64,000 nt of DNA from Candidatus Saccharimonadia bacterium (lineage in GTDB: Bacteria; Patescibacteriota; SICC01): NCBI GenBank assembly GCA_025449535.1, contig JANWJF010000001.1, positions 138,847 through 202,846 of the forward strand, given 5' to 3'. The first letter of the stretch is position 1. The number at the start of each line of letters is the position of its first letter. This document shows positions 43,742-49,865 of the stretch, one piece after another. The notes under the pieces were generated by a model that saw only the letters and a program-made list of their open reading frames with translations, was not told the DNA's origin and did not search any database. The position numbers and the translations under genes were made by a program.

Positions 43742-44434
43742 CTATACCTTCTCCAGCAGGAACGCGAACAGGAAACCGGTAGCCGTCGCGAAGGCGACCC
43801 AGGGGCCGCCCTCCTTGTACGCCATGGGTAGCAACGTATTCACCACCATGCCGATGACGGCCCCGGCGGCGAACGACTGCACCGGCGCCAGAATCCGGGC
43901 CGGGACCTCCCCGAGTGCCGCGCCGAGCAGGACGAACCCGGCCAAGGTCGCCGCGATCAGCGACCAGGCCGTTAGGCTGAACCAGGCCGGCTTGCCCGCG
44001 GATCGCAGGCGTCCCGCGCTGGCAAAGGACTCCGGGAAGTTCGAGACCATCACCGCGGCCAGCAGAGCCGGCGAACCGCCGATCGTCGCCAGCGCGCTAC
44101 CGAGCACTAGGCTTTCCGGGACGCCATCGATAAAGTCGCCGATCATCGGCGCGATACCGCCGGCCTCGCTGCGCCGGACCCGCTTCAGGACCAGCTGGCT
44201 GAGCAGGATGTAGACGACCACGCCGGCCAGCAGTCCCCCGCCGGCACTGCCCGCGCCTCCCGCTTCGAACGAGACGACGAACAGATCGTACGACAACGCG
44301 GAGATGAACGATCCCGCGCCGAACGCGAACAGGATCGCGAGCGTGTGCCTGGAGAGATTGATTCGCGAACCGGCGACGGCGCCGATGATCAATGGCAGGA
44401 CGCTGAGTATCGCGTAAAGCAGTACGTCTGACAT
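43742..44434 (-). CDS. ZIP-family metal cation transporter (ZupT-like)
   Basis: multi-TM protein with Gly-rich helices and the central DFIDG-containing loop seen in ZIP transporters. Confidence 0.7.
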   Translation of the reverse strand: MSDVLLYAILSVLPLIIGAVAGSRINLSRHTLAILFAFGAGSFISALSYDLFVVSFEAGGAGSAGGGLLAGVVVYILLSQLVLKRVRRSEAGGIAPMIGDFIDGVPESLVLGSALATIGGSPALLAAVMVSNFPESFASAGRLRSAGKPAWFSLTAWSLIAATLAGFVLLGAALGEVPARILAPVQSFAAGAVIGMVVNTLLPMAYKEGGPWVAFATATGFLFAFLLEKV

Positions 44435-44481
44435 ACGCCCATGGTAGCCCGCTCAAAAATGATTCGCACAGCGGAACGGGA

Positions 44482-45528
44482 TTATGCCGCCTGCAGCAAG
44501 GCTTCCTTGGCACCTTGAAGCTGCGCGCGCCTGCCATCCGGCATCGACGGCGCATGACGCTCCAGCGTCTCGTGGACCGCGGTCAACCGGTCGCGTTCTT
44601 CCTCGGACAGCCGGGCGAGCTCGACGCGGTCGATTGCGTCGAGCGCCTCCTCTTGCTCCGTATAGGCTTCCGAGCGGAACATCCGTTCCGCCCGTATCAC
44701 GCAGCCTTCGGCCAGCGCCAGATATGCCTGTGTCTCGAGCGTCGCCAGCTGCTCCTCTTCCTCGACGGTCAACGGCGTGTCGAAGCCGCTCGCCGACCAT
44801 CGCCGTACGAACGCGACCGCCTCGAGGGCCCGCCCGGCGAAACGCTTGGGAGTATCCTTGCCGCGATTCCAGTCGAGATTCCTCACGTCGGGGCCCCGTA
44901 GCCGTTCTACTTCCTCAAGATGGAATCGGGCGGCTTCGGCGGTCTCGAGTTCTATCCGCGCCTGGAATACCGCGATCGGCACCATCTCCCGGTAGAGTTC
45001 GGCGCGGCGCTCCCCTGGCAGTCCCGTGTAGTCGTCCAAATGCTTACCGCCTTCCGGACGCTCCGCCGTCGCGTAGTTCGCGAACGCACCCGCATAGTCG
45101 CCGGCTGCATAGCCAAGCTGACGGACCCGGGCTTCCAGATGACCGAGATACCGGTCGTTTTGATACCTGGTAAAGGTGCGTGCAAGCCGCTCCTGCAATT
45201 CTTTGGGATACCGTTTCCTCACGTCCGCCGGTATCTCCGGCAGATCCATGGCCCGGTCGTTCGGAGCCAGTTCCCCGTACACGGAGGCAAGCTCCCGGTG
45301 CAACGCGCCGGACAACGCCCTAAGGCCGGCCCAGTCCCGGGCCTCGTCATATCCCGGCCTGCCTTCACGATCCTTCAGGTTATGGAGCAACCCTGCGAAC
45401 GTCTTGATCGCGCCTTCGTAATCACCGGTAGCTGAAAGCTCCCGACCCGATTCAAGGGCCGATCCGACATCATGCCAATTGGCTTCCGAATCCCAGTCCC
45501 CCTTCGGACTGTCTACTGATTTCGCCAT
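44482..45528 (-). CDS. hypothetical protein
   Basis: ORF track; ordinary soluble-protein composition; no recognised motif. Confidence 0.45.
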
Positions 45529-45648
45529 ACGGACCTCTTGCTCAAACTATACCAGCGTTGCCGTCCCTTCGGACCCCTTTGTATGTTCGTACGAAGCTAC
45601 GGCATCAGTCGGGCGTATGATGAAGAACGATTAAGCCGAAGGAGGCAC

Positions 45649-46038
45649 ATGTTCAAAGACTCACACGCGTTCAGCAGTTTCTCGACCGATGACATCAAGC
45701 AGGCCGAGGAATTCTACGGTAAGACGCTTGGCCTGGATGCCAGCATGAATAAGGAGATGGGCATCCTGCAGGTGAAGCTCGCCGGCGGCGGCCAGGTGAT
45801 GATCTACCCCAAGGACGACCACGCGCCAGCCACGTTCACCGTGCTCAACTTCCCCGTCGACGACATCGAGCAGGCAGTCGACGCGCTCAGCGGGAAAGGC
45901 GTCACGTTCGAGCAGTACGGCAAGGAGTACATCAAGACGGACGAGAAAGGCATTGCCGGCGAACCGGGCAAAGGGCCGCGGATGGCCTGGTTCAAGGACC
46001 CGGCGGGCAACATCCTGTCCGTGCTGAGCGAGAAGTAA
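45649..46038 (+). CDS. VOC-family (glyoxalase/bleomycin-resistance fold) protein
   Basis: start trimmed to ATG preceded by AAGGAGG; betaalphabetabetabeta pattern ([10 protein letters not shown]...[13 protein letters not shown]). Confidence 0.75.
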
Positions 46039-48161: not shown

Positions 48162-48227
48162 GGGCTACTGCGAATGCAGAGCCATGAAAAATAACATGAT
48201 TAAGTTACTTTCTCAACAAGCGCGTCA

Positions 48228-48539
48228 CTATCGTTTGCATAGATACGAGTCGGCCGCCGCAGGCACCGCCGCCTCGAACCCTTCGGGTAGATCCAACTCA
48301 GACAAGGGCGGGTATCCGTCGTGTATCAGCGATTCGACCATCACCTCGCGGCCGCGGATCTCCAGGGCCTCTAGATAAGCCGGTCCGTCCCCGAACCGGT
48401 TGAAACGAAGTCGGACGTCCTCGCCGATCTCCATCCTGATCTTCAGACACTCACCTTCGTCTACGACGGTAATCGGGGGTAATCCTTCGGGACCCTCTAC
48501 TTCGACACGCTCACCGAGTTCTACGGCTTCTTCAGCCAT
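48228..48539 (-). CDS. hypothetical small protein
   Basis: ORF track; start overlaps methyltransferase stop. Confidence 0.35.
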   Translation of the reverse strand: MAEEAVELGERVEVEGPEGLPPITVVDEGECLKIRMEIGEDVRLRFNRFGDGPAYLEALEIRGREVMVESLIHDGYPPLSELDLPEGFEAAVPAAADSYLCKR

Positions 48540-49131
48540 CGCCTTTCCTTACGATGAAGTTCATCCATACCTTTCCGTCCTCTTCGCCGTCTGGATCCTC
48601 AGAGTAACCGACTACATCCAGGCCGTTCTTCTCAAGCGCGTCCTGCAGTTCAGTTTGCGTGAAGCGACGCCGGAAGCGTTCGGACGGCCCTTGGAAGTTC
48701 CGTTTGCGCTCGAACCCCTCGCTCGACTTCTCGTGTTTGGTCGTAGAGATGAACGCCGCTCCGTCGTTAGTCAGCAGGTCCCGCACCTTCCGCAATACGC
48801 CGGGTAGTTCGATGCTGGGAAACAGATGCACGAACGCGACTGCCAAGATACCGTCGTACTGTTCACTGAACGCATGTTTACCAAAGTCATCGACGACCAT
48901 CTCGGCTTCGGGACATCGCTCACTGGTAACCCGCGCCATTTCCGGCGAGATCTCGATCGCCGTCACCTCGCAGCCTCGGTCCACTAGGATCCGGGACATG
49001 TTCCCGTTACCAGGACCTATGTCCAACACGCGCGGACTGTCGACCTCGGGCATCGTGGCCAGCAGTTTACCGATGATTCGTTCGTCGTTCGGGAACCGGC
49101 TCTCCTGCTTCGCCTTGAACTCTTCAGCCAA
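48532..49131 (-). CDS. class I SAM-dependent methyltransferase
   Basis: motif I VLDIGPGNGNMS, acidic residue after beta-2 (EIS). Confidence 0.75.
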   Translation of the reverse strand: MAEEFKAKQESRFPNDERIIGKLLATMPEVDSPRVLDIGPGNGNMSRILVDRGCEVTAIEISPEMARVTSERCPEAEMVVDDFGKHAFSEQYDGILAVAFVHLFPSIELPGVLRKVRDLLTNDGAAFISTTKHEKSSEGFERKRNFQGPSERFRRRFTQTELQDALEKNGLDVVGYSEDPDGEEDGKVWMNFIVRKGDG

Positions 49132-49214
49132 ACCGTCATAGGTCCTGCGATGCAGCTCCTGGATGTCAGTGAGAGGAGATATAGCTCAAGTGTAATTTGC
49201 CCAGCAGGTTTCAC

Positions 49215-49865
49215 CTATTGATAGCCCAAGGCAGGACCTTGGACTGGGTAGCGTACGCGCAAGCCCTCTTCCCGCAACGCCGCTTCCACGGACCGCCGCA
49301 GCTGCGTGAGTTTGCGGTACGCCGAACTGGCCTTATCTTCATAACGGTCGGCCGTAGAGTGCAGGAACGACTCGATTTCTTGCACGGCATTGGTAATGCC
49401 GATCGGATTCTCCTCAAGCTTCTCTGCTTCTTCTTTCTCCTTGGCCCACTCGACCAGTCCTTCGAGATACGGCAGGGCTGCGGATAAATCGTGCCTTGCC
49501 ACATGTCGGAGTAGGTATTCGTAGTCCATTTCGTCGGTGACCTCCAGTAACGCCAACGCCGTTTCGTCGGGAGGCCACGGTTTGTCGCCTCCATACAGGC
49601 GCTCGAAGATTTCCTTAGTTTTCACACCGTCCGATTCCAGTAGGTCAAAAAACGCCTCTTGAACAGCCCAGGCATCGAGTTCACCGCCACCTGGAAGCGG
49701 TACCTTGCCATCCGGAGTCTCTTCCTTGGCGTAATAAATGAGACCAACGATTTCCACCGCCGGGGCTTGGGCAAGATAGTCAGCGGCTACCTGTCGGGCA
49801 GCTTCATTTTCACGAAACATTGCTTCGCGTTCAGCGGCCTCTTCGGGGGTTTCTTTATGAGCCAT
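49215..49865 (-). CDS. hypothetical protein
   Basis: ORF track; acidic, helical composition. Confidence 0.45.
   Translation of the reverse strand: MAHKETPEEAAEREAMFRENEAARQVAADYLAQAPAVEIVGLIYYAKEETPDGKVPLPGGGELDAWAVQEAFFDLLESDGVKTKEIFERLYGGDKPWPPDETALALLEVTDEMDYEYLLRHVARHDLSAALPYLEGLVEWAKEKEEAEKLEENPIGITNAVQEIESFLHSTADRYEDKASSAYRKLTQLRRSVEAALREEGLRVRYPVQGPALGYQ

Follow-up and report, generated by a model that had tools for sequence, protein, structure and literature searches.

The stretch considered here, positions 43742–49865 of a 64,000-nucleotide window of DNA, comprises eight open reading frames (ORFs) that lie between murB, beyond which the secE–nusG–rplKA block follows, and the tRNA-Trp and rpmG genes. 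The original prediction had described it as an accessory stretch of lower GC on the 3' side of tRNA-Trp, and had proposed that a 411-residue protein with a ParB/Srx-like nuclease domain (hereafter p411), a methyltransferase (MT199) and a membrane protein (mem221) could form a defence or DNA-modification module. All eight ORFs are present with the coordinates, strands and descriptions given there (Table 1), and the stretch does lie on the 3' side of tRNA-Trp. In the following, we describe the composition of this region, its conservation in close relatives, the genes that are specific to the species, and p411.

Gene order and base composition between tRNA-Trp and secE

The NusG sequence places the source of the window among the Patescibacteria (candidate phyla radiation, CPR), as all 80 best genome matches are metagenome-assembled genomes of Patescibacteria type, the nearest being JAUYKS010000022.1 (94% identity). 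All population contigs of the species at NCBI and JGI, which measure 0.68–0.81 Mb and are annotated as 'Patescibacteria group bacterium', carry the locus with 100% identity. For Patescibacteria, the GC content of the window (∼63%) is unusual, with 58–60% in the two close relatives analyzed below and mostly 40–45% in the hosts of distant p411-family members.

Read on the minus strand from high to low coordinates, the gene order is holB, a TPR protein gene, tRNA-Thr(ggt), tRNA-Tyr, a PRK-like kinase gene and tRNA-Thr(tgt) (both on the plus strand), rpmG, two tiny membrane-protein ORFs, tRNA-Trp, hyp216, MT199, hyp103, mem221, p411, the VOC gene (plus strand), hyp348, the ZIP-like gene, murB, secE, nusG, an ORF of 90 residues, rplK and rplA. 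Intergenic gaps within the stretch do not exceed 221 bp. An Rfam scan of 41–53 kb returned tRNAs only, and promoter and terminator scans of the same segment gave counts at chance level.

Table 1. Genes and other features at the tRNA-Trp/secE locus, in window coordinates
Feature	Coordinates	Strand	Remarks
murB	42810..43703	-	Housekeeping flank; Pfam MurB_C and FAD_binding_4; position kept in the sister
ZIP-like membrane protein, six transmembrane segments, 230 aa	43742..44434	-	Clade backbone, fast-evolving
hyp348, acidic soluble protein	44482..45528	-	Species-specific, in the variable VOC–ZIP slot
VOC/glyoxalase-fold protein	45649..46038	+	Clade backbone, convergent with p411
p411, orphan ParB-like protein; predicted ParB-CTPase/Srx fold, helix-turn-helix, helical C-terminus	46039..47274	-	Clade backbone
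Conserved region of ∼70 bp upstream of p411, probable promoter and leader	47275..47344	-	Aligned with L081 and L084; inner edge of the insert
Species-specific four-gene insert	47345..49891	-	Abuts the tRNA-Trp 3' end; from synteny of relatives and composition
mem221, membrane protein with KR-rich tail	47496..48161	-	Start uncertain, other callers give 201–221 aa
hyp103, small acidic protein	48228..48539	-	ORF call; start overlaps the MT199 stop
MT199, generic class I methyltransferase dependent on S-adenosylmethionine (SAM)	48532..49131	-	Pfam, NCBIfam, PDB, PADLOC
hyp216, acidic ORFan	49215..49865	-	Starts 26 nt after tRNA-Trp; GAGG upstream
tRNA-Trp (CCA)	49892..49966	-	ARAGORN, Rfam
Two tiny membrane-protein ORFs, 62 and 55 aa	49972..50328	-	Between rpmG and tRNA-Trp; absent in relatives
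rpmG (ribosomal protein L33)	50344..50508	-	Translation; Pfam Ribosomal_L33 on the identical gene in L087
PRK/uridine-kinase-like P-loop kinase, 190 aa	50626..51198	+	Pfam PRK 28.7 bits (cutoff 22)

The base composition of the stretch is uneven. Overall its GC content is 0.603, compared to 0.633 for the window, which corresponds to the 10th percentile of windows of the same length. The GC trough itself is located at 47345–51200 (0.564), where GC is lower than in any other 3.9-kb segment of the window (0.3 percentile); the trough extends across tRNA-Trp and includes the PRK-like kinase gene. At the level of individual genes, the GC content at third codon positions (GC3) of the 52 other window genes, a list obtained by heuristic codon-score calls, is 0.83 ± 0.065. 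Against this background, hyp216 (0.58, z −3.8) and hyp103 (0.64, z −2.9) deviate most within the stretch, followed by MT199 (0.71, z −1.9), hyp348 (0.72, z −1.7) and p411 (0.75, z −1.3), and Mann-Whitney tests gave p = 0.004 for the eight stretch genes and p = 0.001 for the four tRNA-proximal ones. The lowest GC3 of the window belongs to the kinase gene (GC 0.517, GC3 0.53, z −4.6). The visibly lower GC that had been attributed to the whole stretch is therefore a property of its tRNA-proximal part, whereas the secE-proximal third (43–45 kb) has a GC content of 0.65 and the GC3 values of the ZIP-like (0.86), VOC (0.87) and mem221 (0.81) genes are normal. Elsewhere in the window, an isolated gene of low GC3 is found at 17248–17925 on the minus strand (GC3 0.57, GC 0.55), distant from the stretch, and further GC dips occur at 6–7 kb, 37–39 kb and 56–57 kb.

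Backbone genes and variable slots in close relatives

Two close relatives were compared with the window, namely a sister genome (L001/L081, NusG 94% identical) and a third relative represented by a 4-kb ENA contig (L084). In the sister, tRNA-Thr and tRNA-Tyr are followed by a low-GC ORF of 175 residues, an inverted tRNA-Thr, rpmG, tRNA-Trp, a 104-bp spacer and a p411 homolog, after which come a phosphoribosyltransferase (PRTase) gene, the VOC gene, YjbQ, a helix-turn-helix (HTH) protein, three hypotheticals, a short-chain dehydrogenase/reductase (SDR), the ZIP-like gene and MurB, and finally a low-GC ORF of 247 residues, RibD_C, SecE and NusG. The L084 contig reads tRNA-Thr, tRNA-Tyr, tRNA-Thr, rpmG, tRNA-Trp, a 110-residue ORF (42% GC), a p411 homolog, the VOC gene and an SDR. 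Accordingly, all three genomes have p411 and VOC in place, and the window and the sister also the ZIP-like gene and murB (L084 ends earlier).

Since the ZIP-like, VOC and p411 genes occupy the same place in the relatives, they belong to the backbone of the clade, though they evolve fast. Identities between window and sister are 99% for RplK, 94% for NusG and 82% for MurB, compared to 64% for VOC, 48% for the ZIP-like protein and 43% for p411; towards L084, they amount to 61% for the p411 homolog and 70% for VOC. The clade backbone consists of tRNA-Thr, tRNA-Tyr, tRNA-Thr, rpmG, tRNA-Trp, p411, VOC, the ZIP-like gene, murB, secE and nusG. All three genomes share its portion from the tRNAs through VOC; the remainder was observed in the window and the sister. 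In the 79 other nusG loci (L002–L080), the 10 kb around nusG are free of p411-family homologs.

Several of the slots between these backbone genes hold different, unrelated and mostly low-GC3 orphan genes in each genome. The slot from tRNA-Tyr to tRNA-Thr contains the kinase gene in the window, the unrelated 175-residue ORF in the sister and nothing in L084, and the slot from rpmG to tRNA-Trp contains the two mini-ORFs in the window and is empty in both relatives. Between tRNA-Trp and p411, the window carries four genes, the sister none and L084 one; between VOC and the ZIP-like gene lie hyp348 in the window, six genes in the sister and the SDR in L084, where the contig ends. The murB–secE slot is empty in the window and holds two genes in the sister, and is not covered in L084. 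The proposal that the 3' side of tRNA-Trp serves as an insertion point is thus borne out by the zero, one or four unrelated genes present there in the three related genomes.

In alignments of the three genomes, DNA similarity breaks off at most a few bases from the tRNA-Trp 3' end and resumes ∼70 bp upstream of the p411 start, and these two breakpoints delimit a species-specific insert of 2.5 kb (47345–49891; GC 0.56–0.59). L081 lacks this segment, and L084 has a different one in its place. Specific to the species are the four genes of this insert, hyp216, MT199, hyp103 and mem221, and, in addition, hyp348.

Taken together, these results make it likely that the region from tRNA/rpmG to secE is a composite one, in which genes turn over within a small clade of high-GC Patescibacteria, and which also carries the orphan ParB-like p411, rather than a single island or a functional module. 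The region is best explained as a hotspot in which gene turnover on a small scale is overlaid on a fast-evolving backbone specific to the clade, that is, as ordinary genome plasticity. What had been called an accessory stretch is indeed lineage-restricted and fast-evolving, but it is not one inserted unit, as the ZIP-like, VOC, p411 and murB genes have their counterparts in place. Two points weigh against the turnover account. Insertion in the window genome, as opposed to deletion in the others, is deduced from composition and parsimony, because the close relatives number only two and one of them is a 4-kb fragment; and remote homologs of hyp348, mem221 and hyp103 may exist. As to mechanism, the insert would have arrived by illegitimate recombination or by a recombination event whose traces are now erased, and it would be carried as a small operon read in the direction of the tRNA. 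In more general terms, the locus illustrates that turnover of small orphan genes continues in reduced Patescibacteria genomes, in slots between tRNA genes and genes for ribosomal proteins, and does so without mobility functions that can be recognised.

Among the remaining backbone genes, the ZIP-like protein has six transmembrane-like segments and is named 'ZIP family metal transporter' in its NCBI record; the Pfam Zip model (PF02535) scores 20.9 bits against a cutoff of 35.1 and aligns over profile positions 178–300 only, and neither NCBIfam nor a PDB sequence search gave a match. Its ortholog adjoins murB in the sister. The VOC protein matches Pfam Glyoxalase (PF00903) at 29.5 bits, above the cutoff of 20.6, and probably starts at 45649, which gives 129 residues. 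Its orthologs in L081 and L084 are annotated alike and are convergent with the p411 homolog, with the PRTase gene in between in L081 and in direct adjacency in L084.

Several further features of the slots were observed. In the window genome as well as in the sister, orphan genes specific to the species have a consistently lower GC content than the backbone. The kinase gene is flanked by tRNA-Tyr and the inverted tRNA-Thr(tgt), and its product also gives weak Zeta_toxin and AAA_33 matches. The two mini-ORFs are hydrophobic and of normal GC3, and in L081 and L084 rpmG is followed directly by tRNA-Trp. An acidic 90-residue ORF (41662–41934, minus strand; GC3 0.68) interrupts the normally tight nusG–rplK junction, and the same junction of the sister (L081 20475–21040) contains ORFs of 99 and 88 residues with trace similarity to it (E 1e-3). 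Finally, rplA (40271–41125, minus strand) has an apparent Lys/Ala-rich N-terminal extension of ∼50 residues, which could be real or reflect an over-long start call; similarity to the sister begins at residue 49.

The species-specific genes and the origin of the insert

For hyp348, no match was obtained in Pfam, NCBIfam, PHROG, PADLOC or PDB sequence searches, and no homolog is present in L081 or L084. Similarly, mem221, which has at least three transmembrane segments ahead of its KR-rich tail, and hyp103 match no Pfam, PADLOC, NCBIfam or PHROG family, and all three proteins are singletons among 90% clusters. The product of hyp216 (isoelectric point 4.6) gave nothing in a PDB sequence search, and its sole match among 5.8 billion proteins is hyp216 itself.

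MT199 is the only member of the insert with recognisable relatives. Its Pfam matches are Methyltransf_23, _25, _11, _12, RrnaAD and CMAS, with none to the DNA-methyltransferase families N6_Mtase, N6_N4_Mtase, DNA_methylase or MethyltransfD12; all NCBIfam matches lie far below their cutoffs, and its relatives in the PDB are small-molecule N-methyltransferases and one rRNA methyltransferase. A weak PHROG match to 'DNA methyltransferase' (E 2e-5) scores below the PHROG for 'tRNA methyltransferase'. We therefore rejected MT199 as a DNA methyltransferase, as only generic class I, small-molecule or rRNA-type families are matched and no endonuclease is linked to it. MT199 may instead act on small molecules or RNA and be translationally coupled to hyp103, with an 8-nt overlap between its stop and the hyp103 start. 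With low confidence, the insert as a whole could be viewed as an operon that combines a methyltransferase acting on small molecules or RNA with a membrane component.

A different possibility is that hyp216, hyp103 and perhaps hyp348 are non-functional, either decaying remnants or spurious or de novo ORFs, and that only MT199 and mem221 are real genes. The lack of any homolog of hyp216 is in line with this, as are GC3 values of 0.58–0.64, far from the genome norm, and the similar low-GC orphan ORFs that the relatives carry in other slots. However, the ORFs are long for DNA of 56–59% GC and fill the insert with gaps of 66–221 bp, their GC1>GC2 periodicity is coding-like, a GAGG motif precedes hyp216, and the overlap of hyp103 with MT199 resembles translational coupling. 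The overlap and the GAGG motif suggest, as far as sequence features allow, real and co-transcribed genes, and we consider a non-functional origin of these ORFs unlikely.

It is less probable still that the whole of 43.7–49.9 kb is one island, integrated at tRNA-Trp so as to split an ancestral tRNA-Trp/secE adjacency, with its integrase and attachment sites since decayed. Such adjacency is common in other phyla, the stretch does lie on the 3' side of tRNA-Trp, and its genes are faster-evolving or lower in GC3 than housekeeping genes. Yet the ZIP-like, VOC, p411 and murB positions are kept in the sister, and the p411–VOC pair also in L084; the ZIP-like and VOC genes are of normal GC3; and the interval between tRNA-Trp and secE includes the housekeeping gene murB. 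Moreover, 69 further Patescibacteria loci that extend 2 kb or more upstream of nusG contain neither a same-strand tRNA-Trp nor an rpmG detectable by tblastn in that region, so that an interrupted ancestral adjacency is unsupported in this phylum. In no relative are secE and tRNA-Trp adjacent. We rejected the single-island reading on these grounds, since the backbone genes are conserved in place; for 43.7–47.3 kb, it is largely refuted.

Searches for mobility functions agree with this. As had been noted in the original prediction, there is no integrase, transposase or repeat of the tRNA end: Pfam, NCBIfam and PHROG contain no recombinase, integrase or transposase family matched by the eight stretch proteins or the kinase, the 3' 30-mer of tRNA-Trp has no second copy at up to 3 mismatches, and a scan for direct and inverted repeats gave nothing meaningful, the only similarity being that of the T-arm to other tRNAs. 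The 2.5-kb insert had no blastn match in plasmid and phage collections, mem221, hyp348 and p411 had no tblastn match in plasmids, and no relatives of mem221, MT199, p411 or hyp348 were found among IMG/VR viral contigs. The insert resembles tRNA-associated islands and integrative elements in that it starts at the tRNA-Trp 3' end, deviates in composition and is absent from relatives. In contrast to them, it lacks an integrase, a duplicated 3' segment of the tRNA and genes of phage, plasmid or conjugation type, and comprises four genes only; similar orphan slots are also found away from tRNAs in the sister, at murB–secE and nusG–rplK.

p411, a predicted orphan ParB-type protein

No Pfam, NCBIfam, PHROG or PADLOC model matches p411 or any of ∼100 relatives. 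For the ParBc model (PF02195), there was no Pfam match at E<10 in five family members, nor at E<0.01 in 99 members. A word-indexed search with p411 returned five relatives only, and an exhaustive HMMER search with a profile of five sequences returned 809 representative clusters (551 at E<1e-10), mostly of 380–430 residues and matched over their full length. The hosts that could be identified are Patescibacteria, or low-GC metagenome contigs for distant members. In an alignment of 89 members, R58, G127, R130 and N171 are invariant, and Q56, N62, Y94, F97, W102, H128, Q167, E170, A182, E187 and L228 are at least 90% conserved.

An AlphaFold2 model of p411 based on this alignment reached a predicted local distance difference test score (pLDDT) of 88 and a predicted template modelling score (pTM) of 0.78, and its topology agrees with that of an earlier model from five sequences. 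Foldseek comparison of the model with the PDB placed Noc, CTP- or CDP-bound ParB, KorB, Spo0J and pNOB8 ParB at the top (E 6e-7 to 3e-4), with matches spanning ∼250–280 columns, that is, the N-terminal ParB/Srx (ParB-CTPase) domain and the HTH domain, and phage ParB/Spo0J-like proteins of the viral set (BFVD) scored at a similar level. The predicted architecture therefore has in common with ParB, Noc, KorB and Spo0J the ParB-CTPase fold and a central HTH that follows the N-terminal domain. An hhalign comparison with B. subtilis Spo0J, to be taken as illustrative only, was weak (E 0.0084, low probability) and aligned AGHSR with GERR, ENIHS with ENLQR, and 'L..AL.y..LP.eIR' with the ParB HTH.

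The motifs of the family differ from those of canonical ParB in several respects. The GxxR of Box II is present (G127, R130), but it reads GHSR instead of GERR, with His for the catalytic Glu and Ser for the first Arg, and the His in this position implies that hydrolysis or nucleotide preference may differ from ParB. In Box III, E170 and N171 are conserved, whereas the Arg is replaced within a Ser/His context (ENIHS instead of ENLQR). A family-specific insertion of ∼26 residues (EYIxFTNxxW) precedes Box II, the N-terminus is unconserved and without a visible LG-R/K-GL ParA-binding motif, and the C-terminus is long and helical, with coiled-coil-like profile matches, rather than a small ParB dimerisation domain. 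GxxR is a nearly invariant phosphate-binding P-motif across characterised ParB-CTPase folds, orphan ParBs often deviate in Box III, and neither sequence nor AlphaFold 3 allows nucleotide specificity to be predicted (PMC12704722). Unlike the known orphan ParB-CTPase-fold proteins Noc, KorB, VirB and PadC, p411 goes undetected by PF02195 and by other Pfam or NCBIfam models.

At the level of the predicted fold, p411 is thus a divergent orphan ParB-type protein, not a canonical ParB, and is predicted to bind DNA and nucleotide. Its earlier description as a nuclease-domain protein does not stand in view of this ParB/Noc/KorB-like DNA-binding architecture, and we rejected a stand-alone nuclease, as the HTH is present and no nuclease-type partner domain was found in ∼100 members scanned. 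Several observations tell against the ParB assignment, which depends on predicted structure and motif alignment: sequence profiles fall short of ParB, a PDB profile search with p411 reached ParB at a non-significant E of ∼0.3–0.5, the protein is acidic (isoelectric point 5.1), and no parS-like repeated palindrome is present in the window.

The ParB/Srx fold has a wider link to defence systems. In DNA-modification systems, it is found in DndB-like proteins and in fusions to SAM-dependent methyltransferases (PMC12704722). The idea of an anti-phage defence or DNA-modification module made up of p411, MT199 and mem221 could further point to their co-oriented, adjacent genes and to the PADLOC mad2 match of MT199, which is the sole PADLOC match of the eight proteins (profile positions 267–416 of 492, E 9e-20), but it is highly improbable and fails on the neighbourhoods of p411, since in all other genomes examined (L081, L084, L085, L086, L093, L094 and L095) the p411 homologs stand without a neighbouring methyltransferase or mem221-like gene. 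In addition, between p411 and the insert lies a conserved region resembling a promoter, and MT199 resembles the methyltransferase domain of mad2 only, being a single-domain protein of 199 residues compared to a model of 492 positions, without any other MADS component and with generic class I proteins as its best matches.

The wider context of p411 comes from a handful of contigs, as a word-indexed profile search gave 7 members. No ParA/CbiA-type gene is present in the recovered neighbourhoods of p411 homologs from eight different organisms, and distant members sit among glycosyltransferase, staphylococcal nuclease (SNase) and CobA-like genes, in chromosomal housekeeping contexts.

As indicated above, p411 and the ZIP-like protein are among the fastest-diverging shared genes, compared to MurB, NusG and RplK. 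This divergence is particularly evident between the two relatives, in which the flanks are 92–94% identical at the nucleotide level, whereas the p411 homologs (L084 2092–3237 and L081 10001–11221) are 53% identical in amino acids and 66% in nucleotides over 455 nt, and the VOC genes 77% in nucleotides. Judged from these alignments, the difference appears to be a localised divergence burst or an allelic replacement at the gene pair.

With regard to function, the most likely mode of action is that p411 would dimerise and bind a specific DNA site via its HTH, and that nucleoside triphosphate (NTP) binding at its N-terminal domain would switch its conformation, as in a clamp or a regulator. It is conceivable, albeit speculative, that the family acts as a ParA-independent, nucleotide-gated DNA clamp or regulator with a ParB/Noc role in Patescibacteria, that GHSR implies a different nucleotide or hydrolysis, and that fast divergence stems from co-evolution with DNA sites or with episymbiotic-host or phage factors.

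Viewed as a possible island or defence locus, the stretch is ordinary, and p411 is its sole element of wider interest. It defines a large, widespread and previously unrecognised family of ParB-like architecture, at the level of structure prediction, that current domain models miss. As PF02195 is blind to this family, a survey based on that model, such as the domain-centric search in PMC12704722, is expected to overlook it. The family could bear on chromosome organisation or regulation in ultra-small bacteria. In L085, L093 and L094, all of low-GC lineages, a neighbourhood of glycosyltransferase-4, SNase, p411 and CobA/CobO-like genes recurs, and the SNase genes next to p411-family members are 46–63% identical across contigs.

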